64,000 nucleotides of DNA. It comes from Candidatus Cloacimonadales bacterium (lineage in GTDB: Bacteria; Cloacimonadota; Cloacimonadia; Cloacimonadales; JAIOQZ01). The DNA lies in the NCBI GenBank assembly GCA_963665815.1, contig OY762463.1, positions 1 to 64,000 of the forward strand. Reading direction: 5' to 3'. How positions within the stretch are numbered: the stretch's first letter is position 1; each line of letters begins with the position of its first letter. The translations under genes were made by a program, and so were the position numbers. Below the pieces are notes generated by a model, which was not told the DNA's origin, did not search any database, and saw only the letters and a list, made by a program, of their open reading frames with translations. Shown here one piece after another: positions 43,096-64,000 of the stretch.

Positions 43096-43172
43096 ATTGT
43101 TAGTAAGAAATATTGACAAAATAACTAAATCAGATTCATTTACATAATCAAATTCAATTGTTCGAGGTAATT

Positions 43173-43757
43173 ATGAGATTTCTTATTGTTATTATATTTG
43201 CATTGTCTTTAACAACCTGTGGCTATGATTTATCACAGTATCAGCACCTTAAAAATCCGGAAATCAAAGTAAAAACAGATCAGCCTGTAATTGTTTATAC
43301 GGTAAAAGGTGATCCCGGGGAATCCGGTAAAGAAGCATTTAAAGCACTTTTCTCAGCATTTTATGCACTTAAAGGAAAGCATAAAATTAAGTCTTCTGCT
43401 CCGATTGCAAGATGGTATGGGGATGTAAATGGTCCTAAAGACCAGTGGACAGGTGAGTTTGCATTAAAAATCAATGAATCTGTAAAGGAGATACCGGAAA
43501 AGATTATAAAGAAATATCCAAAGCTGGAACTGAAAGTCTGGACTTACGGAGAAACAGCTGAGATTCTTCATATTGGTGCTTACGACAATGAGACTGAAAC
43601 AATTAAAAGGCTGCATGAGTATATTGAAAAATCCGGTTATGAGATAAATGGGCAGCATGAAGAAGAGTACATAAAGGGACCGGGAATGTTCTTTAACGGA
43701 AATCCAGACAAGTACCAGACAATAATCAGATATCCTGTTAAGAAAATTGAGGATTGA
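43173..43757 (+). CDS. GyrI-like small-molecule-binding lipoprotein
   Basis: Lipobox LTTC; AEILHIGAYD.E, HEEEY, TIIRYPV. Confidence 0.8.
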   Translation: MRFLIVIIFALSLTTCGYDLSQYQHLKNPEIKVKTDQPVIVYTVKGDPGESGKEAFKALFSAFYALKGKHKIKSSAPIARWYGDVNGPKDQWTGEFALKINESVKEIPEKIIKKYPKLELKVWTYGETAEILHIGAYDNETETIKRLHEYIEKSGYEINGQHEEEYIKGPGMFFNGNPDKYQTIIRYPVKKIED

Positions 43758-51036: not shown

Positions 51037-52371
51037 ATGAATCAGACTTTACAAAGGACGTTACCACAGGATATTAATGCTGAAGCCGCTGTGCTTTCTG
51101 CAATGATGATAGATACATACACGGTCTCTAAAGCTATTGAAGCTCTTGGAGAAGAGCACTTCTATAAAACTGCTCACAAACTGATCTACAGAGCTGTATC
51201 CTCTCTTTATGAAGATGGTATTGAGATTGATATTATTACTCTTATAGATCGGCTCAAGATGCAGAATAACTTGGAAAAAGTTGGCGGAGCAGTTTATATA
51301 AACGAGCTTTCCGATGTTGTTCTCAGTGGAGCAAATCTGTCTTATCACCTTGATATCATGTTATCAAAGGCGCATCTCAGGCAACTGATAGAAACATCCA
51401 ACCAGATTATAGAATCTGCATACAATGCAGAGAAAGATGTTGATGAAATTGTTGACGAAGCAGAGCAGGCGATATTCAAAATAGCAGAACATTCTAACAT
51501 GAAGTCCTTTGTGAAAGTTGCTGATATTATCCCTGAAACACTGCACATGATTGAGGAAGTTGCAACGTTGAAGAAATCAGTTGTTGGAATTCCAACCGGA
51601 TTTGCCGATCTGGACAGACGACTTGGTGGATTCCGTCCGGGACAATTAGTTGTACTAGCTGCAAGACCTGCTATGGGAAAAACATCTTTTGCATTGAATA
51701 TAGGTTTTTATGCTGCAATGTACCACAATATGAACGTTGCTTTCTTTACTCTTGAGATGACAGCCGATGAACTTCTGATGCGTATATTCAGTTCTGCAGC
51801 GGAAGTAAGTATGGATAATATGCTGAAGGGTTATGGAATGAACTCCGAGAAGATCAACAGGATTATTCAGGTTGGTGAAGCATTAAACGAAAAAAACATA
51901 TATATAGATGATTCAGGTTCTAACTCTGCTCTGGATATCAGAGCTAAATCAAGAAGGCTTAAAGCTGAATTGAAAGGGCTTGACCTGATCATTATAGATT
52001 ACCTCCAGCTTATGAACGGATCAAAAAGAACCGATAGTCGTCAACAGGAGATTTCAGAGATTTCCAGAGCTCTCAAGGTTTTGGCAAAGGAACTGGAATT
52101 GCCGGTGATTGCTCTATCTCAGCTTAATCGTGGATTGGAGTCCAGACCGGATAAACGCCCGATTCTTTCTGACTTGAGAGAATCCGGTGCGATTGAGCAG
52201 GATGCTGATATTGTGATGTTCATATATAGGGATGAATATTACAATGCCGATTCTGAAAAACCGGGTGTTGCTGAAATCATTGTAAGTAAAAACAGACACG
52301 GACCTACCGGTTCAAATGATCTGAGATTCATTGGAGAATATACTTCTTTCAGAAATCTTGAAGAATATTAG
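51037..52371 (+). CDS. dnaB: Replicative DNA helicase
   Basis: AARPAMGKT, IDYLQLM, LSQLNR, SDLRESGAIEQDAD, KNRHGP; no intein. Confidence 0.98.
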   Translation: MNQTLQRTLPQDINAEAAVLSAMMIDTYTVSKAIEALGEEHFYKTAHKLIYRAVSSLYEDGIEIDIITLIDRLKMQNNLEKVGGAVYINELSDVVLSGANLSYHLDIMLSKAHLRQLIETSNQIIESAYNAEKDVDEIVDEAEQAIFKIAEHSNMKSFVKVADIIPETLHMIEEVATLKKSVVGIPTGFADLDRRLGGFRPGQLVVLAARPAMGKTSFALNIGFYAAMYHNMNVAFFTLEMTADELLMRIFSSAAEVSMDNMLKGYGMNSEKINRIIQVGEALNEKNIYIDDSGSNSALDIRAKSRRLKAELKGLDLIIIDYLQLMNGSKRTDSRQQEISEISRALKVLAKELELPVIALSQLNRGLESRPDKRPILSDLRESGAIEQDADIVMFIYRDEYYNADSEKPGVAEIIVSKNRHGPTGSNDLRFIGEYTSFRNLEEY

Positions 52372-52573
52372 AAGAGATTTGAATAATGGCAGTGCTATAA
52401 AGCTCCAGGGAAAAGTATAGATAAGATTTTCGAGTTCATCATACAAGTTTTTCTTTAGAAATTGTTTTTAACAGAATTAGATGAAGTTTAAAATCGAATC
52501 AACTTGTATTTTGAGTGAATATTGGATAAGGCTATGTCAAATATTAAAATATAATTAGAAGAGAATAAAATAA

Positions 52574-53323
52574 ATGAATGCAATCAGAATTATTGGTGCT
52601 TATGTGATTTTCTTGTTTCATGTTGCTTCCAAAATAGGATGTCTTAGAAAAAGAGTTTTCGAAACTATACAGCAGATGAAGAAATCGGGTTATGATTCGC
52701 TGATTCTCATAAGCGTGACAGCCGGATTTACAGGGCTTGTTACAGCTGTTCAGGCATCTTACCAGACAAAGGGATATATTCCGGACAGGCTAATAGGCGT
52801 TCTTGTTGGCAAATCGACCATGATAGAGCTTGCACCGGTTTTGACAGCTCTTGTGTTGGCAGGTAAGGCAGGTGCTTCTATTGCTGCTGAGATCGGGACA
52901 ATGAAAGTAACTGATCAGATTGATGCTCTGGAATCAATGGCAATAGATCCTTATGACTTTCTGTATTTCCCACGCATTCTGGCAGGAATAATTGTAGTTC
53001 CATTACTAACAATTTATGCAAATCTAATAAGTATCATGTCTGCTTTTGTTTTGTCGAAATACATGTATAACATCACAGCTTACAATTTCTTTATCAACAT
53101 GAAGCAGTATTTTGATACATGGGATTTATGGGGTGGACTGGTAAAATCAGTATTTTTTGGATTTGTCATTACATCCATAGGCTGCTTTATTGGCTCAAAC
53201 ACTGTCAATGGGGCAGAAGGAGTTGGTAAATCAACTACTCAAACTGTTGTTTATGCTTCAATCCTGATACTGTTCGTAGATTTTGTTGTAGCTTCATTTT
53301 TATTCGGAGGATTTACTCAGTGA
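52574..53323 (+). CDS. mlaE: MlaE-family lipid ABC permease
   Basis: ELAPVLTAL..AG..GA.IAAEIGTMKVTDQIDALE, GAEGVG. Confidence 0.9.
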   Translation: MNAIRIIGAYVIFLFHVASKIGCLRKRVFETIQQMKKSGYDSLILISVTAGFTGLVTAVQASYQTKGYIPDRLIGVLVGKSTMIELAPVLTALVLAGKAGASIAAEIGTMKVTDQIDALESMAIDPYDFLYFPRILAGIIVVPLLTIYANLISIMSAFVLSKYMYNITAYNFFINMKQYFDTWDLWGGLVKSVFFGFVITSIGCFIGSNTVNGAEGVGKSTTQTVVYASILILFVDFVVASFLFGGFTQ

Positions 53324-54396
53324 TCAGAAAATTTCTATTCTTTGCCGTTATTGCAATATTCTTAATAAATTGCGGTGCTCCACCTGAGGAAAAAGTTAAG
53401 GAGAAACTTTCAGATTCGCTGGATGTTTTTGTTACGAAGGATTTTTTCTCACTTAATTATATGCAGGACATTACATCTGAATTTACCAGAACTAACAAGA
53501 TGAAACTCAATAATGTCATCTTTGAGAATTTTGGGCAGTTAAAGGATTCTTTGTATGCAATAAGACGCTTTAATAACAAGATTGTAAACGATAGTCTGGA
53601 TGTTGAAAGCATTAAAATGCCTGATCTGGTAGTAGGTGTTAATCAAACATTCTACAGAGAAATGATGAGGGATTCTATATTTACTGTTAACCGTAAGTTT
53701 GAGATAGAGAAAATGCATGATTACCTGAATCTTAAAAAATTCCCGGGTTTTATTCCATTATCCTGGTCATATCTTGCGTTTATGGTTGATAGAGAGTATA
53801 TGAACAAATATCCCGAGACATTCGGTCAGCTTCAGGATGGTAACTATAAAGGTCGTATATTGCTTAGTCAGCCTTTTGATACATGTATTGGTAACGCTTT
53901 TGTATACTGGGTAGGAGGGATATTCAAGAAATGGGGATTTTCTCATTATACCAGAGCAATCAAGGATAACATCGGGGAGATTGAAGATAATGCCGAGGAT
54001 GCATATAATAAGTTTCTTGCCTCTGAGCATAATTTTGTCCTGACATATTCCTCGAGAATCGGATATCACTTTTCTAAAGGTGAGAATAAGAGATATGAAG
54101 TTATTGTGCCATCGGAAGGTCATTTCCGACAGGTTCTTGGGATGGCTGTACCTAAAGAAACAGAATTGAACATGAAAACAGATAAATTGATAGAGATGAT
54201 GCTGGAATTTAAGAATCAGGAGTTAATGCAGACGAGATTATTTATGTTCTCTGTGCTCAAAGATGTTGAAGCTCCCAAGAATTTCACTTTATCCAATATA
54301 CCGCCTCAGGATGTAACAAAAATCCTGTGGGATAAAAAAGTGGACGAATACTATAATTACTGGAAAAAAAGATGGAAAATTCTAATAAAGATGTAA
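53320..54396 (+). CDS. ABC solute-binding lipoprotein, thiamine-binding (TbpA/ThiB)-like
   Basis: Lipobox LINC; PDLVVG, AYNKFL...VLTYSS, EGHFRQV. Confidence 0.55.
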   Translation: MIRKFLFFAVIAIFLINCGAPPEEKVKEKLSDSLDVFVTKDFFSLNYMQDITSEFTRTNKMKLNNVIFENFGQLKDSLYAIRRFNNKIVNDSLDVESIKMPDLVVGVNQTFYREMMRDSIFTVNRKFEIEKMHDYLNLKKFPGFIPLSWSYLAFMVDREYMNKYPETFGQLQDGNYKGRILLSQPFDTCIGNAFVYWVGGIFKKWGFSHYTRAIKDNIGEIEDNAEDAYNKFLASEHNFVLTYSSRIGYHFSKGENKRYEVIVPSEGHFRQVLGMAVPKETELNMKTDKLIEMMLEFKNQELMQTRLFMFSVLKDVEAPKNFTLSNIPPQDVTKILWDKKVDEYYNYWKKRWKILIKM

Positions 54397-54845
54397 CTTT
54401 CAGAATAGTTCTATATGAACCTGAGATACCTGCAAACACTGGTAATATAGGTAGATTATGCGTTGGAGCTAATGCTGAACTTCACATAATAAAGCCTATG
54501 AGATTTTTTATCAATGATAAATATGTCAAAAGAGCCGGATTGGACTACTGGAAAGACCTGAAGTTAACTCTTCATGATAGTCTTGAAGACTATCTTCTTA
54601 TGTATCCGGAAGTTAACCACTATTATTGTACAACCAAAACAGATAATAAATTTACTGATTTCAGTTATAAAAAAGGTGATTCGTTCATTCTGGGTCCTGA
54701 ATCCAGAGGATTACCGGAATCATTACTTGACGAAAACAAAGAGAAATCAATAACTATTCCTATGTCTGACAAGATCAGATCAATCAACCTCAGCAATAGT
54801 GCCGCCATCGTATTATACGAAGGTTTACGGCAGATAGGCTTTTAA
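54372..54845 (+). CDS. trmL: tRNA (cytidine/uridine-34 2'-O)-methyltransferase
   Basis: EPEIPANTGNIGRLC, RAGLDYW, GPESRGLP, RSINLSN. Confidence 0.95.
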   Translation: MENSNKDVTFRIVLYEPEIPANTGNIGRLCVGANAELHIIKPMRFFINDKYVKRAGLDYWKDLKLTLHDSLEDYLLMYPEVNHYYCTTKTDNKFTDFSYKKGDSFILGPESRGLPESLLDENKEKSITIPMSDKIRSINLSNSAAIVLYEGLRQIGF

Positions 54846-54858
54846 TCCGGAGGAAAAA

Positions 54859-55734
54859 ATGCTTAAAGGATCATATGTAGCACTTGTTACACCGTTCACT
54901 AATGGTGAAATTGATTATAATGCACTTGAAAAGCTAATAAAATTTCATATTGAGAACAAAACCGATGGTATTCTTTTATGTGGAACTACCGGTGAAACAC
55001 CTACACTTGCCGGAGACGAGAAAGAACGTCTTATCCGTTTCTGTGTTAAACTCATCGATAAGAGAGTTCCGGTAATGATAGGAACAGGCACCAATAATCT
55101 TAATCACACAATTGCAGCAACTACGAGAGCTTCTCAATGGGGAGGAGATTATGCTTTAATCAGTACTCCTTACTATGTGAAACCAACTCAGACCGGTTTA
55201 TACCGTTTTTACAAAGCAGTGCATGATGCAACAGATATTCCCATAGTTGTTTATAATGTACCGGGAAGAACAGGTTGTAATATTGCGGCAGAGACTGTGA
55301 TAAAACTTGCCAACGACTGTGAGAGAATAGTTGGACTGAAAGCTGCGAGTGGTGATCTGATTAAGACTTCAATTGTTGTAAAGGGTACCTCAGATGATTT
55401 TTCAGTAATGTCCGGCGAAGACGGGTTGAACCTTCCTTTGCTTTCCTGCGGAGCTAAAGGAGCTATTTCCGTTACTGCAAATGTTGCTCCTAGCAAAGTA
55501 CACGATCTTATTGAGGCTTATGCAAATAAAGATAACGATACAGCTTTAGAGATTCATCAGGCATTGATAGAACTTAATGAAGCATTGTTTGTTGAGACAA
55601 ATCCTATTCCGGTTAAAGAAGCACTGGTAATGATGGGATATATAAAAAGAGAATTCAGGCTTCCAATGTGTGAGTTGTCTGAAAATAACAGAGTCTTTCT
55701 TAATGGAGTTCTGAAAGAGAACGGCTTAATCTGA
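54859..55734 (+). CDS. dapA: 4-hydroxy-tetrahydrodipicolinate synthase
   Basis: GTTGE, PYYVKP, YNVPGRTG, SGED, ETNPIPVK. Confidence 0.96.
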   Translation: MLKGSYVALVTPFTNGEIDYNALEKLIKFHIENKTDGILLCGTTGETPTLAGDEKERLIRFCVKLIDKRVPVMIGTGTNNLNHTIAATTRASQWGGDYALISTPYYVKPTQTGLYRFYKAVHDATDIPIVVYNVPGRTGCNIAAETVIKLANDCERIVGLKAASGDLIKTSIVVKGTSDDFSVMSGEDGLNLPLLSCGAKGAISVTANVAPSKVHDLIEAYANKDNDTALEIHQALIELNEALFVETNPIPVKEALVMMGYIKREFRLPMCELSENNRVFLNGVLKENGLI

Positions 55735-55746
55735 TAGAGTTATTTA

Positions 55747-56127
55747 ATGCTTAGAAACAGGAAAAAAGTAGATAAAACTAGTATAGTATGTCCCAAGTCA
55801 AAAAGGCATGAAAGTCTTTTTGTCTGTGCAATCAATTGTCATAAAAAATGTCCTAAATACATAGAAACTATAACAATTGGCTTACTTCTGGAATTTGTTC
55901 AACAACATCCGGAATACAAAATAGTTGGAGAAATGATGGCTGCACCAAAAGCAAAAAAGACAGCAGGCGAAAAAAAATACTGGGTTGTGACCGAAGATAA
56001 TCATTTTGTAGAATTAACAGAACAAGAAATTCTTGAGAATCCTCTGGATTATATTGGCAAACAGGTTTTTGACAAACCTCCTGCACAATACGAAATAGTA
56101 GTAGCTTTGAAAAAAGTTAAAAAATAA
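55747..56127 (+). CDS. Hypothetical protein with Cys-rich N-terminus
   Basis: 126-aa ORF within the operon; four Cys; possible internal start at 55936. Confidence 0.6.
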   Translation: MLRNRKKVDKTSIVCPKSKRHESLFVCAINCHKKCPKYIETITIGLLLEFVQQHPEYKIVGEMMAAPKAKKTAGEKKYWVVTEDNHFVELTEQEILENPLDYIGKQVFDKPPAQYEIVVALKKVKK

Positions 56128-56166
56128 GATAACTCTTACAAGTACATAAGTGAAAGGATTCTTAAA

Positions 56167-57609
56167 ATGGAGTATAGGTATCTCAAAGGCTGGATAAAGG
56201 AATCTGATTATATCAAGGGATTCAGGTTTCAGGGACTTTCTGTGTTTGAAGACCAATATGTAATTTCCTTTAAAAAACGAAAAGAGATACTACAGATTGA
56301 TCTGTCAAAAGGCTCAGTCTTTTACACAAAACAAAAAACACCTTTCACTGATGAGAATGGATTCTGCAACTATTGCAATGATCATCTCAAAAGCAGTACA
56401 TTAAGCGATATCAATATTCTGGATAACGACAGGATAGTAGAACTTTTCTTTACCAGAGTTAATATCTATAACCAGCAGGAAAAATTCAGACTGATTCTGG
56501 AGCTTATACCTCGTTACTACAATATTATTCTGGTAAACGACTCCGATCAGGACGGATTGATTTCCGATTCTCTGAAACGCATATCCTTTGCAGAGAATAC
56601 AACTCGGCAGGTACTGCCCGGAGTAATATATCAATCTCCAAGCAGTGATTTTAAGATAACAGATACTGATGTCGAATTTCCTATAATCTTTAATTACAAC
56701 TCTTTTGATTCAATCAATCAGTTTCTGGAATACCAGTATTTCAATGTAATTCTGGAGAAAAGAATTAACGGTGAACGAAGCAGAATCCTTAAAACGCTGA
56801 GGAAAAAGCTCAAATCCAAAGAAAAAAAACTGGAAAAGCTTAAGGTAGAACTGGAAGATTCACTTAACGAAACAATTTATTACCAGAAAGCAGAGTTATT
56901 GAAAGCTTCGTTTCATGCATTAAAAAAGGGTATGAAAGAAGTGGAACTGCAGAACTATTTCGCTGAAGACTACCCGATGATAACCATTGAGCTGAATGTA
57001 GAAAAATCTCCTCAACAGAATGTTGAGTGGTACTTCAAGAAGTATCGCAAGGCAAAATCAGGAAAAATCAGGATACAGGAAGAGGTAGAGAAGACAGATA
57101 CCTTTATCGATGAGATAAACCGTGAGATCTTTGATATAGAAGAACAGAATGACTATGTTCAACTGAAGAGTTATTCACAGAAGACAGATACTAAAGTAAC
57201 TAAAAAGAAGAAAAGTTATAGAAAAATGTTTATAGATGACTGCTGGGAAATTTTCATAGGTAGAACCAACAGGGAAAATGACGAATTGACTACTCGTTTT
57301 GCCAAACCTCATGACTGGTGGTTTCACTCAAGGATTTTCCGAGGCTCACATATTATTATCAGGAATTATAAGAAGAAAGCAGATCTGCCGGATGAATTGC
57401 GCAATCTGGCTGCAAGAATTGCAGCATACTACAGTAAGGCAAAGAAATCTGAGAATGTGCCTGTGGACTTTACTCAGATTCGGTATGTGCGGAAACCAAG
57501 GGGCTCTGCAGCAGGTTTTGTAACATATAAGAACCAGAAAACACTGTATGTCAATCCATTGAGTATGAGAGATGCAGCAGATATTATTAAGAAAATGACC
57601 AAGGAGTGA
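56167..57609 (+). CDS. NFACT/RqcH-family (FbpA-like) protein
   Basis: DRIVEL, LELIPRYYNIIL, YFKKYRKAK, GRTNRENDELT, WFH..GSH, VDFTQ. Confidence 0.9.
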   Translation: MEYRYLKGWIKESDYIKGFRFQGLSVFEDQYVISFKKRKEILQIDLSKGSVFYTKQKTPFTDENGFCNYCNDHLKSSTLSDINILDNDRIVELFFTRVNIYNQQEKFRLILELIPRYYNIILVNDSDQDGLISDSLKRISFAENTTRQVLPGVIYQSPSSDFKITDTDVEFPIIFNYNSFDSINQFLEYQYFNVILEKRINGERSRILKTLRKKLKSKEKKLEKLKVELEDSLNETIYYQKAELLKASFHALKKGMKEVELQNYFAEDYPMITIELNVEKSPQQNVEWYFKKYRKAKSGKIRIQEEVEKTDTFIDEINREIFDIEEQNDYVQLKSYSQKTDTKVTKKKKSYRKMFIDDCWEIFIGRTNRENDELTTRFAKPHDWWFHSRIFRGSHIIIRNYKKKADLPDELRNLAARIAAYYSKAKKSENVPVDFTQIRYVRKPRGSAAGFVTYKNQKTLYVNPLSMRDAADIIKKMTKE

Positions 57610-57612
57610 TTG

Positions 57613-57975
57613 ATGATTGTCAAATCACTGAATAGAATTAAAAGTATAAATGCTCTCGATGGGACAGTAGTAAAAGAGATTCTACATCCGGATAAGGATG
57701 CCCTCGAGATGAACTTCAGCCTTGCTCACGCAGTGCTGGCACCACAGGAGAAATCTCTTAAGCATAGAATTACTACTGGTGCCGAGATTTATGTTATTAT
57801 AAAAGGTTATGGATTAATGCATATAAATGATGATGAGCAGATTGTCAAACCGGGAGATACAATTTACATCCCGGCAGGAGCTGTTCAGTTTATTGAAAAC
57901 ACCGGAGAAGAAACCCTTGAGTTCTACTGTATGGTAGATGGGGGATGGTCTCAGGATTGCGAGGAATTATGCTGA
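57613..57975 (+). CDS. Cupin domain protein
   Basis: SLAHA, H..EIYVI.KG.G, PGDTIYIPAG, ENTG. Confidence 0.88.
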   Translation: MIVKSLNRIKSINALDGTVVKEILHPDKDALEMNFSLAHAVLAPQEKSLKHRITTGAEIYVIIKGYGLMHINDDEQIVKPGDTIYIPAGAVQFIENTGEETLEFYCMVDGGWSQDCEELC

Positions 57976-58649
57976 AAAAATCAATCGTACTGCTAAGTGG
58001 AGGTATGGACTCACTTGTTACACTGGCTATCGCAGCAAAGGAATCAGATGAGCTTTATTTTCTGCATGTGAACTACGGGCAGAAAACAGAAGCAAAAGAG
58101 CTGGAATGCTTTAATAATCTGGTGAAGCACTATAAACCTGCAGATATACTTGTAGCAGATATCGAATATCTCAAAAAAATTGGTGGTTCTAGTCTGGTTG
58201 ATGATTCTATGGAAATAAAAGACTATACCGGGGAAGATCGTGTGCCGAATACTTATGTGCCTTTCCGGAATGCTCACATGATCTGTATTGCTGTTTCCTG
58301 GGCAGAGGTTATTGGTGCTCAAAGAATATACATCGGAGCAGTGGAAGAAGACAGCTCGGGATATCCTGATTGTCGAGAAGAATTCTACATGCATTTTAAT
58401 AAAACTATAGATACCGGAACACAGGATGAAACTAAGATAGAGATTGTTACTCCGGTAATCCATAAAAAGAAATCTGAGATTATTACACTTGGTAAAGAGC
58501 TGAACGCTCCATTTAAGTTTAGCTGGAGCTGTTACAGAGAAAACGACAGAGCATGTGGAACCTGTGACAGTTGTGTTCTGCGTATAAACGCATTTAAGGA
58601 AGCCGATTTAGTTGACCCTAACCCTTACAAGATTGACATCGACTGGTGA
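57969..58649 (+). CDS. queC: 7-cyano-7-deazaguanine synthase
   Basis: SGGMDS, YVPFRN, YPDCR, SWSCY, CGTCDSC. Confidence 0.96.
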   Translation: MLKKSIVLLSGGMDSLVTLAIAAKESDELYFLHVNYGQKTEAKELECFNNLVKHYKPADILVADIEYLKKIGGSSLVDDSMEIKDYTGEDRVPNTYVPFRNAHMICIAVSWAEVIGAQRIYIGAVEEDSSGYPDCREEFYMHFNKTIDTGTQDETKIEIVTPVIHKKKSEIITLGKELNAPFKFSWSCYRENDRACGTCDSCVLRINAFKEADLVDPNPYKIDIDW

Positions 58650-58653
58650 AGCA

Positions 58654-59736
58654 ATGAATAAATATGGCTATATGAAGCAGGCGATTGCTATTGCTGAGCA
58701 GGGAAGAGCCAGAACATCTCCTAATCCTTTTGTCGGGGCAATCATTGTAAATGATGGACGTGTTGTGGGTAAGGGTTTTACTCAGCCTGCCGGGAAGAAT
58801 CATGCGGAAGTAGAAGCAATTCTTGATGCCGGAGAACGATGTAAAGGTGCAGATATTTATGTAACACTTGAGCCATGCTGCCATTTTGGCAAGACACCTC
58901 CCTGTACTAATGCAATCATCAGCAGCGGGATAAATCGTGTTTTTGTTGGTATTGAAGATCCTGATCAGAGAGTTGCAGGAAAAGGCATTGATATCATGCG
59001 AAAAGCCGGAATTCATGTAGAAGTAGGGTTGTATGACGAGCAAATACGTAAGCAACTGGAAGCATATATTTTTTCAAGGCTGAATACCGGGTTGTTTGTT
59101 CATAGCAAGATTGCAGCTTCTATGGATGGTAAAACAGCTCTTGAAAATGGTAAATCTAAATGGATAACAAATGAGAAGTCCAGAATAAAAGTCCATGAAA
59201 TGCGGAACAGATCAGATGTCGTAATTACAGGAATTAATACCGTTCTTGCAGATAATCCAATGCTGAATGTACGAGGAATTGAGAATTCCCGAAATCCTTT
59301 GAGAGCAATTCTGGATACAAATCTGAGAATCCCTTTGGATTGTTATATTGTAAAAACTGCCAGAGAACAAAAGACAATTGTATTTCATGTAAAAGATGAG
59401 AAAGATAAGGTTAAAGAACTGGAAAAATTAGGAATAGAGTGTGTTAAAGTCGCCGAGGAATATGGACATGTAAATCTTGAGCAGGTGACAGGTATCCTCA
59501 AGAACAGGGGATTTATGCTGTTGATGCTTGAAGCCGGCAGGACATTGAATACTTCATTTTTACAGCGTGGTTTGCTCAATCGGATCTCGTATTATGTCGG
59601 TGGAAAAATTCTGGGGGGAGATCACAGTATTTTCAGTGGATTCAAAATTGATGAAGTTGATCAGGCTGTAAAGTTGTCGGTAGATGATGTTGTTAGACTG
59701 GACAACGATGTGCTAATTGAGTATAGGGTAGAGTAG
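58654..59736 (+). CDS. ribD: Riboflavin biosynthesis deaminase/reductase
   Basis: PNPFVG, HAE, LEPCCH.GKTPPC, SKWIT, DNP.L. Confidence 0.96.
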   Translation: MNKYGYMKQAIAIAEQGRARTSPNPFVGAIIVNDGRVVGKGFTQPAGKNHAEVEAILDAGERCKGADIYVTLEPCCHFGKTPPCTNAIISSGINRVFVGIEDPDQRVAGKGIDIMRKAGIHVEVGLYDEQIRKQLEAYIFSRLNTGLFVHSKIAASMDGKTALENGKSKWITNEKSRIKVHEMRNRSDVVITGINTVLADNPMLNVRGIENSRNPLRAILDTNLRIPLDCYIVKTAREQKTIVFHVKDEKDKVKELEKLGIECVKVAEEYGHVNLEQVTGILKNRGFMLLMLEAGRTLNTSFLQRGLLNRISYYVGGKILGGDHSIFSGFKIDEVDQAVKLSVDDVVRLDNDVLIEYRVE

Positions 59737-59979
59737 AGATAATAGAACCGGACTAGTAGGGGTAGGGCAAGCAGAGACTTGACTCATTGGATGTCTACAC
59801 TTCGATTTCCCTGATTTTGTGTATATGTTTCAGTAGGCTCAAATCCATCAAACAAGGTAGTGGGGACATAACATGTGAATGTTTTTAAAGTTTATTCAAA
59901 GCAAATCCACCGACAATTAAATTGACAAATCAAATTCTCTGATGTACAGCATAAAATATCAAAAATAAGGATAGTTGTT

Positions 59980-62900
59980 ATGCAATGCAAACTGAATACG
60001 ATCGGTAACCTCAAATATAATAATGGATTACACGAACTTAGAGTTGATCAGAAGTACGTTAAGGGTCTTAAAAATCTGGAGATGTTCAGTCACATTCTTC
60101 TGATTACAGCTACGGAAATTCAAGAACGAGCAGGTTTTAAGATTCTTACAGCCGGGATTAAAGATATTGATCTGCTTTCCGGGTACTTTGCTCTGAACAT
60201 AAACGAAAATGTCGAATCTGCTTCGATTTATGACATTAAACCTTATATCCCTTGCGAAGATAGAGTTATTGACTTAGTATCATGTGAAAACAAGCAGAAT
60301 TCGCAAAAGCTTGTACAGAAAGAAGAAATTTTTTCTGATTCTATTGGCAGGATAGATCGTTTTCAAGGTAGGCAACTTCTGATTATGGATGAAGATTTGA
60401 ATGCTATGTTCAATGCAGGTGATTATATCAGAGTTATATGGTGGTTCTCAAGGTTTGATAAGAAAGCATTCCGAAAAACCTTGCTGGTTAATCCTCCATA
60501 TGAAGATGCACCCAAAAGCGGTGTTTTTGCAACAAGATCACCTGTTCGTCCCAATCCCATTGCTATAACTACTGCAAGAATTCTGGAAATCAATGGAAAT
60601 CATATCATAATTTCAGATATTGAAGCATATAATAATACTCCGGTTCTGGATATTCTGTCATATAATTCTAAGGATATAAATATCGAAGAAATCAGAGTCC
60701 CTGAATGGATGAATCATTGGAAAAGTCATTTTATTTACAGTAATGAAAATTCTGTAAAAAAAGAAAATAAATATGTAGATTTAAACAAATACTTTAAATA
60801 TGAATTAAGCAAAGAAGCTCCAACCGAGAAGGATGTAACAGAGGATTCTGACCTTAACCACATTGTTGTTAAAAGAGCCAGACAGAATAATCTTAAGGAT
60901 GTATCCGTCAGAATTCCCAAACATAAATTTACAGTTGTCACTGGATTGAGCGGTTCAGGAAAATCATCTCTTACCTTTGATACGATCTATGCAGAAGCAG
61001 AACGTCGATTTACCGGTAGTTTCAGTACGGCAGGTTCCGGAACTGTTCCTGATAAACCTGACTTTGATGTTATAACAGGGCTATCTCCGGCAATAGCAAT
61101 TGAGCAGAACAGGATTATAAGGAATTCCAGATCAAATGTCGGTTCTCTTTCGGGAATATATGGTTTGCTGAGAACACTGTATTCAACATTCGGAACCAGA
61201 TTCTGTGAAGTATGCGGAACACAGCACCATTTTTTTACTGTGCATGATCTAGTTGATCTATGTAAAAATTTGAACGATGAAGCTGATGTTATAATTCGGA
61301 GTAATGGCAGAGTTTTGGTTGAGAGTGTCAAAAAAGCAATTTCAGAAGATTTAAGGGGTATCGAGTATAGATTAGCATCTGAGTATGAAAGGTATCACAA
61401 ACTGACTCTTTTGTTTAATGACGGGAAATTGATTGATGTGACGGACAGAAAAAGCTGTGTTGAATGTGGAAATTTGTTTTTCGACCTGAAACCTTACATA
61501 TTCAGCAGTAATAATCCTGAAGGGATGTGTTCTGACTGTAATGGTACGGGTAGAATAATGAAGGTGGAAGAGGAATCAGTAATAAATGATCCGGACAAAT
61601 CAATACTGGACGGTGCATCAGCCTGGTGGGGAGATTTGCGAAAATTCAGGGATAAGCCTTCAGCAAACTGGATGCGGGGGGAAGTATTTGCATTAGCAGA
61701 GCATTTTAAGGCCGATCTGGAAAAACCCTGGAAGGATTTACCGAAAGACTTCAGGCATAAACTGCTCTATGGGTATTCTGATGAGAAAGTGACATTCATG
61801 TATGAATCTGCATCTGGTCGTTCAGGTAATATTTCTCGTTTTACTTCCGGAGCAATTACAAATATTGAGAGGTTGCTCGCACAGAATAAAGAGAGTACAA
61901 ACGGTATGTTGGGTCGATTCTGCACAGAGCAAATATGTCCCTCCTGTAATGGAACAAAGATTGGACCTGTAGGTCGAAATGTAAGTTTTGCAGGAGAATA
62001 TTATACAGATATAGCTTCTGTTTCAATAGAATACATAAAAGAATGGTGTAAAAATATATATGACTATAAATATAAACCTATACTTGAACAGATAATTGAG
62101 ATCTGTGATTCGGTTTCAGGAGCAGGATTAGAGTACTTGACTCTAAATAGACCGGTACCGACATTATCCGGTGGGGAAATGCAGAGACTGATTCTGTCAA
62201 CCAGAATGCACAGTGGATTAACAGATCTTCTTTATGTACTTGATGAACCATCCAAGGGGTTGCATCCTTATGACTACAGAAAGATATCTCAACAGATAAA
62301 GCGTCTGGCAGAAGCCGGTAATACTTTAATCGTTGTTGAACACGCCGAGGATATAATCAGACAGGCTGATCATGTAATTGATATGGGACCGGAAAGCGGT
62401 GCTAACGGTGGAGAGATTGTTGCTCAGGGCAGTGTGCAGGAGATTATGGAAAATCCGGAATCTGTAACCGGTAGATATCTGAGGGGGAAACATAATATTA
62501 CTTCTGAGAAAAAATCTGTTAAGAAAAGAAACACAATCTTTGTCAAGGGAGCATGCAGGAACAATCTGCAAAATATTGATCTGGAAATTCCTCTGGGTAA
62601 TATTATATCTGTCACGGGTGTAAGTGGTTCCGGTAAGAGCAGTCTGTTATATGATGTTCTCGGAAGAGCCTGGAAGGATTACAGAGAAGACAGAAAGCCA
62701 GGCGGTGACTACTGCAAGGCTGAAGGATTTGAACATGTATCAAGGCTTGTTGTTATTGATCAGAGACCTGTATGGAAATCTATTCGTTCCAATGCGGCTA
62801 CTTATCTTGGTGTGTTTGACGAGATCAGAAAAGTTTTTGCTTCTACGCCAGAGTCAAATGAGAGAAAGTACACCGATGGGATGTTCAGCACAAACTCACC

Positions 62901-63519
62901 AAAAGGACAGTGTCCTGTTTGTAAGGGGCTGGGATTCAAGAAAATATCACTTGGTTTCATGAGTGATATTCATATAAAATGTGATTCCTGTAAAGGATTG
63001 AGATATAAAGAAGAGATTCTGGAGATAGAATACAAGGGGAAATCCATTGCTGATGTTCTGGAAATGGATATATTGCAGGTTCTTGAACTGTTTCATGATA
63101 GCATAAAGATCCGGAATACTCTAATCTGTCTCGTCAGTCTTGGGTTGGATTACATTAAGATAGGGCAATCCACAGCGACATTAAGCGGGGGAGAAGCGCA
63201 AAGACTGAAGCTTGCAGCAGAACTGAATTCACCTGACCTTAAGGATGCCTTGATAATTCTTGATGAGCCGACATCCGGGCTTCACTTTGCGGATGTTCAC
63301 AAGTTCATGGACTTCATCAGGACTATGAATAGTCAGGGAGCAACGATAATCATGATTGAACATGACATGAACGTTGTTGCTCATTCGGACTGGATAATTG
63401 ATATGGGACCGGGTGGCGGAGTAAACGGTGGACGTATTATTGCCGAAGGTACCATCGATGAAGTAGTGAGGACCGGGGAAGGTTTTACTGCTGAATATTT
63501 ACGCAAAATAACTAAATAA
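59980..63519 (+). CDS. Fusion of two TrmO/YaeB-like domains to a UvrA-like ABC ATPase
   Basis: GL..FSH and DIKPY; GVFATRSPVRPNPI; then two GSGKSS Walker A, two LSGGE and CxxC zinc sites. Confidence 0.88.
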   Translation: MQCKLNTIGNLKYNNGLHELRVDQKYVKGLKNLEMFSHILLITATEIQERAGFKILTAGIKDIDLLSGYFALNINENVESASIYDIKPYIPCEDRVIDLVSCENKQNSQKLVQKEEIFSDSIGRIDRFQGRQLLIMDEDLNAMFNAGDYIRVIWWFSRFDKKAFRKTLLVNPPYEDAPKSGVFATRSPVRPNPIAITTARILEINGNHIIISDIEAYNNTPVLDILSYNSKDINIEEIRVPEWMNHWKSHFIYSNENSVKKENKYVDLNKYFKYELSKEAPTEKDVTEDSDLNHIVVKRARQNNLKDVSVRIPKHKFTVVTGLSGSGKSSLTFDTIYAEAERRFTGSFSTAGSGTVPDKPDFDVITGLSPAIAIEQNRIIRNSRSNVGSLSGIYGLLRTLYSTFGTRFCEVCGTQHHFFTVHDLVDLCKNLNDEADVIIRSNGRVLVESVKKAISEDLRGIEYRLASEYERYHKLTLLFNDGKLIDVTDRKSCVECGNLFFDLKPYIFSSNNPEGMCSDCNGTGRIMKVEEESVINDPDKSILDGASAWWGDLRKFRDKPSANWMRGEVFALAEHFKADLEKPWKDLPKDFRHKLLYGYSDEKVTFMYESASGRSGNISRFTSGAITNIERLLAQNKESTNGMLGRFCTEQICPSCNGTKIGPVGRNVSFAGEYYTDIASVSIEYIKEWCKNIYDYKYKPILEQIIEICDSVSGAGLEYLTLNRPVPTLSGGEMQRLILSTRMHSGLTDLLYVLDEPSKGLHPYDYRKISQQIKRLAEAGNTLIVVEHAEDIIRQADHVIDMGPESGANGGEIVAQGSVQEIMENPESVTGRYLRGKHNITSEKKSVKKRNTIFVKGACRNNLQNIDLEIPLGNIISVTGVSGSGKSSLLYDVLGRAWKDYREDRKPGGDYCKAEGFEHVSRLVVIDQRPVWKSIRSNAATYLGVFDEIRKVFASTPESNERKYTDGMFSTNSPKGQCPVCKGLGFKKISLGFMSDIHIKCDSCKGLRYKEEILEIEYKGKSIADVLEMDILQVLELFHDSIKIRNTLICLVSLGLDYIKIGQSTATLSGGEAQRLKLAAELNSPDLKDALIILDEPTSGLHFADVHKFMDFIRTMNSQGATIIMIEHDMNVVAHSDWIIDMGPGGGVNGGRIIAEGTIDEVVRTGEGFTAEYLRKITK

Positions 63520-63592
63520 TTGTATTTTAGCTTTACACTCATTTATAGTATTTTATTATTGAATGTTAGAAAAAATATTAGATGAGGATAAA

Positions 63593-64000
63593 ATGAGATA
63601 CTTAATAATATGCTTTATGTTATGTATGGCAAGTTTATATGCTGTAAATATATATGATGTGCAGTATACGGATGTTTCAGGGGATGGAACTTATCCGTCA
63701 TTACTGGAAGACCAGATTGTGACAGTCAGTGGAATTGTCACATGCAATAATTATTTAACTGACAGATTCTTTATTGCCGATTCAAATGGTGGATACTGGA
63801 ACTGCATATTTGTCTATGATAGGGAAAATGTCAATATAGGTGACTACGTTACAATAACTGGAGAAGTACGAGAGTACAACGGACTTACTGAAATGGCGTC
63901 CCTTACAGGTATGCAGGTCATAAGCAGTGGAAATCCTGTGCCGACTTTCTATCAGGCTACAACTGGGGAAGCATCTTCCACTGAAGCACTCGAAGGAGCA
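63593..64000 (+). CDS. Exported OB-fold (YhcR/ExeM-like) protein, truncated by the window end
   Basis: Signal peptide; IYDVQY, VTVSGIVT, FFIAD, IFVY, GDYVTITGEVREYNGLTE; open to 64000. Confidence 0.7.
   Translation, partial: MRYLIICFMLCMASLYAVNIYDVQYTDVSGDGTYPSLLEDQIVTVSGIVTCNNYLTDRFFIADSNGGYWNCIFVYDRENVNIGDYVTITGEVREYNGLTEMASLTGMQVISSGNPVPTFYQATTGEASSTEALEGA

Follow-up and report, generated by a model that had tools for sequence, protein, structure and literature searches.

A UvrA paralogue that carries an N-terminal tandem of TrmO-like barrels: a candidate DNA-protection protein found mainly in anaerobic bacteria

What would a bacterium do with a UvrA-type ATPase that begins with two copies of a tRNA methyltransferase-like barrel? 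UvrA paralogues are common and, to our knowledge, a role is known only for those of class II, through which antibiotic producers resist drugs. The question is raised by one open reading frame (ORF) near the end of a 64,000-nucleotide stretch of a Candidatus Cloacimonadales bacterium (assembly GCA_963665815.1, contig OY762463.1, positions 1 to 64,000 of the forward strand), which is called the window here. A sequence-only reading of this DNA had claimed a 1179-amino-acid (aa) fusion protein. That ORF is real, as judged from the ORF call, the ATG start, the AAGGA box in front of it, and the initial methionine, which is invariant among 61 aligned homologues. A Pfam scan of the protein gave 22 matches overall, among them TrmO_N at residues 147-229, the UvrA DNA-binding (insertion) domain at residues 532-637, and ABC ATPase domains; the coordinates of all features are collected in Table 1. 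We see an even chance that the protein is an accessory, xenobiotic-induced ATPase derived from UvrA that would protect DNA from DNA-binding xenobiotics, for example intercalators or alkylating genotoxins, and that carries a pocket for S-adenosylmethionine (SAM) or another ligand.

The fold of the N-terminal part was assessed by profile and structure comparisons. Module 2 was matched by the Pfam TrmO_N profile (PF01980) with an E-value of 8.5e-24 and 84.4 bits, which exceeds the cut-off of 26.8 bits. It was placed by phmmer on the PDB entry 2nv4_A (AF0241; E 4.5e-13), and its model (residues 112-248) gave VIA-align Z-scores of 9.7-11.8 against six TrmO/YaeB entries. Module 1 taken alone (residues 1-116) was matched by TrmO_N in two stretches (E 6.1e-5), falling short of the cut-off with 23.7 bits, and gave marginal matches only to PDB sequences. 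The profiles of the two modules, built from 61 homologues, were aligned by hhalign over 93 columns with a probability of 97.8 and an E-value of 1.1e-12. The sole long gap in this alignment (about 30 columns) coincides with the ..NPPYE.AP..GVFATRSPVRPN loop of module 2. An AlphaFold model of residues 1-105 alone has a predicted local distance difference test (pLDDT) value of 87.5, and its top ten Foldseek matches in the PDB are all TrmO/YaeB proteins (E 5.7e-5 to 5.6e-3, TMq 0.62-0.69). The model of the N-terminal 300 aa (61 sequences; pLDDT 86.4, predicted TM-score, pTM, 0.82) likewise has only TrmO/YaeB proteins among its top ten matches. The order of strands is equal in the two modules, and a tight hairpin of module 1 stands in place of the module 2 loop. 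The top family match of the N-terminus is TIGR00104 (TrmO), which scores 84.1 bits when the whole protein is used and 90.9 bits when residues 1-250 are used, both under the cut-off of 93.25. No C-terminal domain of TrmO was found among the 22 Pfam matches, and no DPR motif of the DPRxxY type in the linker (residues 250-293). Sequence and model evidence thus place both modules in the TrmO fold, within a two-barrel unit that is modelled with confidence. The two copies noticed in the sequence-only reading, one without the GVFATRSP loop and one without the DIKPY lysine, were thus recovered by profiles, hhalign, and AlphaFold models, and the N-terminus does match a TrmO profile, module 2 clearly and module 1 more weakly, below the cut-off.

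The losses in the two modules become meaningful when they are compared with the active site of TrmO. Homologues of TrmO are homodimers (Kimura et al. 2014, PMC4132733). The parts of that paper used here describe the SAM (AdoMet) site of AF0241 (E. coli numbering in parentheses) as composed of Gln22 (25), Arg82 (92), and Asp111 (125) from one subunit and Lys122 (136) from the other. R92 binds the carboxylate of SAM, and D125 and the Gln of the PRQ loop contact its amino group. According to the same parts, the substitutions R92A and K136A abolished the activity of E. coli TrmO, and this enzyme requires a C-terminal domain with the DPRxxY motif (PMC4132733). The motifs FSH (residues 36-38) and DIKPY (residues 85-89, within DIKPYIPCEDR, 85-95) were read from the translation of module 1. 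Module 2 contains GVFATRSPVRPNPI at residues 181-194, and DILSY (residues 224-228) replaces DIKPY, so that the lysine is lost. In the phmmer alignment of AF0241 onto module 2, R82 corresponds to R186, D111 to E215, and K122 to L226. Among the 61 homologues, K87, D85, P88, and P91 of the DIKPY segment in module 1 and R186, R190, and N192 of the SAM loop in module 2 are each found in 61/61. Position 215 is always acidic (D in 43, E in 18), and position 226, which held the former trans lysine, is free (the commonest residues are L in 18, S in 8, and I in 7).

This complementary decay matches the inter-subunit SAM site of TrmO and therefore points to a single composite pocket. As judged from residue conservation, strong purifying selection has preserved a single one of the two inter-subunit pockets of the ancestor, and its counterpart was deleted. 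The retained pocket would consist of the GVFATRSP/RPNP loop of module 2 (R186, R190, and N192) with the acidic residue 215, and of K87 of module 1. The two barrels are predicted to pack like the TrmO homodimer because of the pTM value of the model, and K87 should meet R186 and E215 by homology to the TrmO dimer. We infer that SAM or a related small ligand is bound in this pocket. The proposal of an intramolecular TrmO pseudo-dimer, with halves that decayed in a complementary way, therefore holds, given the invariant K87 and R186, the acidic 215, and the free 226.

The remaining part of the protein is a UvrA with two nucleotide-binding domains (NBDs). It was recognized by the UvrA profile TIGR00630 with 847.5 bits, exceeding the cut-off of 729.8, and reached 861.3 bits with the stricter model NF001503, under its cut-off of 1147. 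The ABC motifs are present in both halves: Walker A at 322 and 880, LSGGE at 729 and 1068, and the H-loops VEH and IEH. Conservation across the family extends to D755/E756/P757 and D1095/E1096/P1097, and each of the three zinc modules is intact. Since the ATPase motifs, the zinc modules, the insertion domain, and the C-terminal zinc finger are kept, the protein is expected to form dimers and, like UvrA, to scan distorted DNA or clamp onto it. The protein is 42% identical to the canonical UvrA of its own genome. The main difference lies in the UvrB-binding domain: the spacing between C412 and C493, counted on the alignment, is 80 aa compared with 131 aa in the canonical protein, i.e., about 50 residues fewer or about 60% of the length, and a reduction of this order runs through the whole family. 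The match to TIGR00630 leaves out profile positions 148-214, and similar ranges are skipped in the fusions of five other genomes. The first zinc ligands (C409, C412, C493, and C496) are present in 59/61 family members. The segment between them has 63-95 aa in 57/61 members (median 73), and 0-9 aa in the remaining four, which may be alignment artefacts. A complex prediction that paired residues 403-502 (59-row alignment) and the second domain of the own UvrB (residues 148-252, 30-row alignment) returned a score of 0.00, which, without controls, is uninformative. In searches against the PDB, the UvrA part scored 674 bits with 9gxk and 643 bits with 2r6f (class I), versus 533 bits with 2vf7 (UvrA2 of D. 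radiodurans) and 445 bits with 7sh1 (Ecm16), both of class II. The profile match, the two Walker A motifs, and the zinc count agree with the two-NBD UvrA with an 80-aa inter-zinc segment that had been read from the letters.

The chromosome is available as one contig of 3.96 Mb, which allowed us to look for other UvrA, nucleotide excision repair (NER), and TrmO genes. A full canonical UvrA is encoded elsewhere in the genome (1442 bits, TIGR00630 profile positions 2-924), so the fusion is not the only uvrA, and full-length UvrA was found besides the fusion in 5/5 complete fusion-bearing genomes. On this evidence, the fusion appears to be always an extra paralogue beside canonical UvrA. One uvrB lies at 2.65 Mb and one uvrC at 3.90 Mb, far from the window, in keeping with their noted absence from it. 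Of the two separate genes suggested for checking, a canonical uvrA and a trmO, the former is thus present, and for the latter the fusion itself is the only TrmO_N match in its genome. The genome also encodes a double UvrA in one 1648-aa frame outside the window (G000:C1:2566332-2571167, minus strand; loci L002, L003, L005, and L006). Its two halves each cover TIGR00630 positions 2-116/125 and 258/259-923, so both are without the UvrB-binding domain.

Gene neighbourhoods in related bacteria gave independent support to the proposed protection against DNA-binding drugs. The comparison rests on 80 loci kept of the 129 confirmed, in which ORFs were called and clustered; the 75 directly upstream ORFs (five loci had none) were analyzed with Pfam. 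Two ORF clusters recur directly 5′ of the fusion on the same strand. The upstream gene encodes MerR with a GyrI-like domain in 28 of the 75 loci, AraC with a GyrI-like domain in 18, MerR alone in 2, and a GyrI-like domain alone in 2, so that such drug-sensor regulators are found in 50/75 loci. The 48 genes with a helix-turn-helix (HTH) domain are all on the strand of the fusion, with gaps from -38 to 444 nt. The combination of MerR and GyrI-like domains is the architecture of BmrR, that of AraC and GyrI-like domains is the architecture of Rob, and both respond to toxic planar compounds. In the fusion tree, MerR-type and AraC-type regulators fall into separate clades. The DNA-binding domain has been swapped and the GyrI-like sensor kept, which argues for a real functional tie. 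Besides the regulators, no recurrent neighbour family was found in the related loci, where the rarer neighbours were not all named. In two Thermotogota loci, the place of the regulator is taken by a gene for an Fpg/Nei-like glycosylase with an H2TH domain (L080:9023-9955 and L084:8980-9915).

The closest relatives of the barrels are stand-alone proteins of about 155-180 aa, e.g., P0169, P0178, P0222, and Cloacimonadota ORFs in loci L016-L035. They share the motifs IG without a following PRQ loop, GFSH, WW..xD, PYxxxP..G[VI]FATRSPxRPNPI, DIKPYxPxxDR, and VPxWCxHWP. The tandem thus arose through duplication within this short subfamily. A Pfam analysis of 33 of the 83 ORFs neighbouring stand-alone barrels revealed AraC with GyrI-like genes in the Cloacimonadota loci L029 and L036 (one genus) and L037, and AraC genes in the Cloacimonadota loci L018 and L034; the barrels of these five loci have 152-176 aa. 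This suggests that the short subfamily is tied to xenobiotic responses rather than to tRNA methylation.

The fusion is not confined to this assembly but widespread. A word-index search with residues 1-300 returned at least 257 proteins (protein clusters) at E <= 0.001; the listed matches mostly have 1100-1270 aa and contain PF01980 and PF17755. In databases they go by the name 'TrmO family methyltransferase domain-containing protein' or 'excinuclease ABC subunit A'. When 1.84 billion representatives were searched with a profile, 65 clusters were obtained at E <= 1e-30, and 129 fusion loci were confirmed in 185,579 species genomes. The hosts are mainly Clostridia, Lachnospiraceae, other Bacillota, and Thermotogota, largely anaerobes, with single cases in Spirochaetota, Planctomycetota, Bacteroidota, Calditrichota, Dependentiae, and Cloacimonadota. 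Within the phylum of the window, the two-module form was found in 3/232 genomes, and the other 77 matches begin at query residue 76 or later, in short frames. The closest relative of the window protein comes from a Cloacimonadales genome (68% identity over the N-terminus, 76% overall). An unrooted FastTree phylogeny was calculated for 76 full-length fusions, leaving out five loci with a fusion ORF below 1000 aa. The window protein and its relative form a long branch (1.16) inside a mixed clade of Bacillota and Thermotogota, and despite this branch the window protein retains every family-invariant residue. The seven phylum labels require 11 changes on the tree, compared with a minimum of 6. The pattern fits a horizontal spread of the fusion, the root not being fixed, and the window gene is probably an outlying, horizontally acquired member.

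We also inspected 51 picked tandem-type proteins. Walker A follows the barrels in 38 of them, and the 13 without it all have at most 362 aa. The two-barrel unit stands alone, without a UvrA part, in P0128 (255 aa), P0131 (288 aa), and P0137 and P0147 (257 aa each). P0128 stops directly past a VPKWAEHF motif and was found on five contigs of up to 79.6 kb. These tandem-only proteins may be stand-alone pseudo-dimers or split genes. In P0109 (1003 aa, from a 16-kb contig), PF00145 (C-5 cytosine DNA methylase) is listed besides the TrmO_N and UvrA domains.

Protection of DNA from toxic DNA-binding compounds appears probable because the gene sits behind a drug-sensing regulator in most other bacteria. 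In most lineages, a BmrR-like or Rob-like regulator would sense a toxic planar compound and switch on the fusion gene. The UvrA-type ATPase would recognize DNA distorted by the bound compound or adduct, and its motor would then dislodge or mark the DNA-bound compound, as Ecm16 does with echinomycin. The TrmO-like unit may capture or methylate the released compound or a flipped base, or it may gate the ATPase. A precedent is given in the part of PMC9328131 used here, where the UvrA-like Ecm16 makes E. coli resistant to echinomycin; its ATPase activity is needed, and UvrA, UvrB, UvrC, and UvrD are not. In the most novel form of this mechanism, the UvrA motor would find and expose a DNA-bound genotoxin or an adducted base and the single-site pseudo-dimer would methylate it with SAM, thereby inactivating the compound or tagging the lesion; we hold this dislodge-and-methylate machine to be rather unlikely. 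Several observations weigh against a protective role. The directly upstream gene is of another kind, including GntR, MFS, ABC-2, GNAT, and Fpg/Nei-like genes, in 25 of the 75 loci, and because the type of regulator tracks the phylogeny, few independent events underlie the association. No regulator adjoins the fusion in the window, where the closest GyrI-like ORF is a stand-alone frame of 199 aa without HTH, 16 kb upstream (43158-43757, plus strand). The PRQ loop with the SAM-contacting Gln of TrmO is absent from both modules in the alignment of 61 homologues. As the stand-alone relatives are equally without it, its absence is a trait of the subfamily and not decay of the fusion, and SAM binding is therefore not assured. 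The PDB scores place the UvrA part closer to class I than to the drug-resistance proteins of class II. Owing to this likeness, to zinc module 1, and to the partial UvrB-binding domain, the fusion could still feed ordinary NER.

The last point leads to a specialised NER damage sensor, in which the TrmO-like unit would read one class of modified or adducted bases and the UvrA body would hand over to UvrB. Alkyltransferase-like proteins present alkylated guanine to UvrA. Such a sensor is consistent with the closeness to class I UvrAs, with zinc module 1 and its moderately conserved remnant in 57/61 members, with the intact insertion domain and C-terminal zinc finger, and with the glycosylase gene directly upstream in the two Thermotogota loci. 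The natural substrate of TrmO, a flipped-out modified adenine of tRNA as described in the consulted part of PMC4132733, points the same way. However, the UvrB-binding domain has lost about 50 residues, the TIGR00630 match skips profile positions there, uvrB and uvrC are unlinked in the window, only regulators recur in the related loci as far as the neighbours were named, and the dominant neighbour is a small-molecule-sensing regulator, neither an SOS nor a repair gene. We therefore consider a damage sensor to be somewhat unlikely. SAM or S-adenosylhomocysteine (SAH) could also act as a mere signal that tunes ATPase activity or DNA binding to the methylation or metabolic state, with neither methyl transfer nor a drug involved. 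One pocket under strong purifying selection and the missing elements of tRNA methylation (neither a C-terminal domain of the DPRxxY type nor a PRQ loop is present) would suit such gating; it leaves the GyrI-like regulators and the shared regulator neighbours of the stand-alone barrels unexplained and seems quite improbable to us. Very little credence can be given to an epigenetic or anti-phage component related to MADS, with a UvrA-like ATPase that works with DNA methylation. PADLOC mad3 does match the fusion (P0001) at residues 861-1168 with an E-value of 4.9e-71, but this match is confined to the generic UvrA/ABC part, and since it falls in the ATPase region, mad3 is itself related to UvrA. 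The N-terminal 250 aa have no PADLOC match, and no defence-gene set or mad partners were found among the neighbours in the window and in the 75 related loci. That the protein is a true tRNA m6t6A methyltransferase with an incidental UvrA fusion is highly improbable as well. It is the sole TrmO_N match in its genome, and TIGR00104 is its best N-terminal family match, but the 84-91 bits stay under the cut-off, the C-terminal domain with DPRxxY needed by E. coli TrmO and the PRQ loop are missing, and only one active site of the original two is left.

With protection against DNA-binding compounds as the preferred role, the fusion was compared with known systems. Like the class I UvrAs (9gxk, 2r6f, 3pih, and 3zqj), it has two intact ABC ATPase domains, three zinc modules, the insertion domain, and the C-terminal zinc finger. 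Unlike them, it adds a 290-aa N-terminal TrmO-like tandem plus linker, has the shortened UvrB-binding domain, misses the NF001503 cut-off, and is an extra copy. Class IIa UvrAs are defined, in the part of PMC9328131 used here, by the loss of the first zinc finger and of the whole UvrB-binding domain. The fusion resembles Ecm16, DrrC, and UvrA2 of D. radiodurans as an accessory paralogue with an impaired UvrB-binding domain and a likely role in tolerance of DNA-binding compounds, by a mechanism that is likely ATP-driven and may do without NER, to judge from the same part of PMC9328131. It differs in the N-terminal TrmO-like unit and in its occurrence in non-producers behind multidrug-type sensors, outside antibiotic gene clusters. 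Because the first zinc module with its ligands and the 80-aa remnant of the UvrB-binding domain are retained, the fusion is not of class IIa, and the higher PDB scores with class I agree; the DrrC-type identity suggested earlier has to be given up. TrmO/TsaA (YaeB) is a class VIII beta-barrel SAM methyltransferase, and AF0241 (2nv4) is the nearest solved relative. The barrel fold of both modules and the SAM-contacting Arg, the acidic residue, and the trans Lys are shared with TrmO. Unlike TrmO, a homodimer with two pockets, the fusion joins both halves covalently into a pseudo-dimer that has one pocket; it lacks the PRQ glutamine and the C-terminal tRNA-binding domain and derives from the short stand-alone subfamily (about 158 aa). 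Regulators of the BmrR and Rob types usually control efflux pumps. The same architectures lie directly upstream of the fusion in 48/75 related loci, where the target is a DNA-scanning ATPase instead of a pump, and the pairing is absent in the window. No description of the TrmO-UvrA architecture was found in the main texts of the literature; the 2013 classification of UvrA cited by PMC9328131 (Marszalkowska 2013) may list it. By its sequence, the fusion appears to form an undescribed class of UvrA paralogue outside the definitions consulted here for classes I and IIa, and the combination of domains is visible in database names.

Table 1. Positions in the window of the fusion ORF, its start signal, and its domains and key residues
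Feature	Position	Strand	Evidence or remark
Whole ORF, TrmO-like tandem + UvrA paralogue	59980..63519	+	1179 aa plus stop, ATG start
Shine-Dalgarno-like AAGGA	59967..59971	+	8 nt before ATG, read directly
Module 1 (residues 1-100), TrmO-like barrel without ~30-residue SAM loop	59980..60279	+	TrmO_N, hhalign, model + Foldseek
K87, DIKPY lysine of module 1, equivalent of TrmO K136/AF0241 K122 (trans lysine)	60238..60240	+	
Module 2 (residues 112-248), TrmO-like barrel with GVFATRSPVRPNPI loop and VPxWxxHW tail	60313..60723	+	Pfam, phmmer, VIA-align
R186, module 2, equivalent of AF0241 R82/E. coli R92	60535..60537	+	
E215, module 2, equivalent of AF0241 D111/E. coli D125	60622..60624	+	
Linker, residues 250-293	60727..60858	+	variable columns (61 homologues), pLDDT 47-64
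UvrA part, residues 294-1179, two ABC nucleotide-binding domains	60859..63516	+	TIGR00630, alignment, PDB scores
Walker A of NBD-I, GLSGSGKS, residues 322-329	60943..60966	+	
First zinc module, C409/C412/C493/C496, enclosing the 80-aa UvrB-binding-domain remnant	61204..61467	+	
UvrA insertion (DNA-binding) domain, residues 532-637	61573..61890	+	PF17755, E 2.6e-20
Walker A of NBD-II, GVSGSGKS, residues 880-887	62617..62640	+	
C-terminal zinc finger, C978/C981/C1001/C1004	62911..62991	+	

The neighbours of the fusion within the window are unrelated housekeeping genes. Pfam analysis of the 5′ side identified a DHDPS-family gene, an NFACT-domain gene, a cupin gene, queC, and ribD, of which ribD is the nearest to the fusion and queC the next. 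On the 3′ side follows an ORF that has at least 467 aa and a weak OB-fold match alone. The whole genome has seven GyrI-like matches, including the ORF upstream of the fusion described above. An Rfam scan of positions 59600-60100 at E <= 1 found neither a riboswitch nor a leader. Scanning positions 59600-64000 for promoters and terminators gave 19 promoter-like sites compared with 14.1 expected and 0 terminators, nothing usable. The content of guanine and cytosine is 0.35-0.42 all along positions 52000-64000, and an island signal is absent. Three listed sequencing runs, all from one study, contain this DNA, and no RNA run is among those listed. The NFACT-family ORF (480 aa; 55747-57609, plus strand) is matched by the NFACT_N profile at positions 274-450 only, and a 126-aa ORF without a Pfam match stands before it; this gene may be split or N-terminally divergent.

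The meaning of the finding is independent of the window genome. Three features make the family directly testable: a TrmO dimer that nature has put into a single chain, where evolution shows which residues form the working pocket; the half-deleted UvrB-binding domain; and, in most lineages, a dedicated regulator that senses small molecules. If the link to drugs is true, an inducible defence against DNA-binding compounds that does not rely on efflux would exist in many anaerobes, with a bearing on antibiotic warfare in nature, and a function would be given to short TrmO-like proteins that are currently annotated as tRNA methyltransferases. Should the dislodge-and-methylate machine also prove true, the fusion would be the first small-molecule or lesion methyltransferase coupled to an ABC ATPase and a new class of UvrA. 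It would then represent a widespread inducible drug resistance in anaerobes, including the gut-associated Eisenbergiella, Robinsoniella, and Enterococcus.

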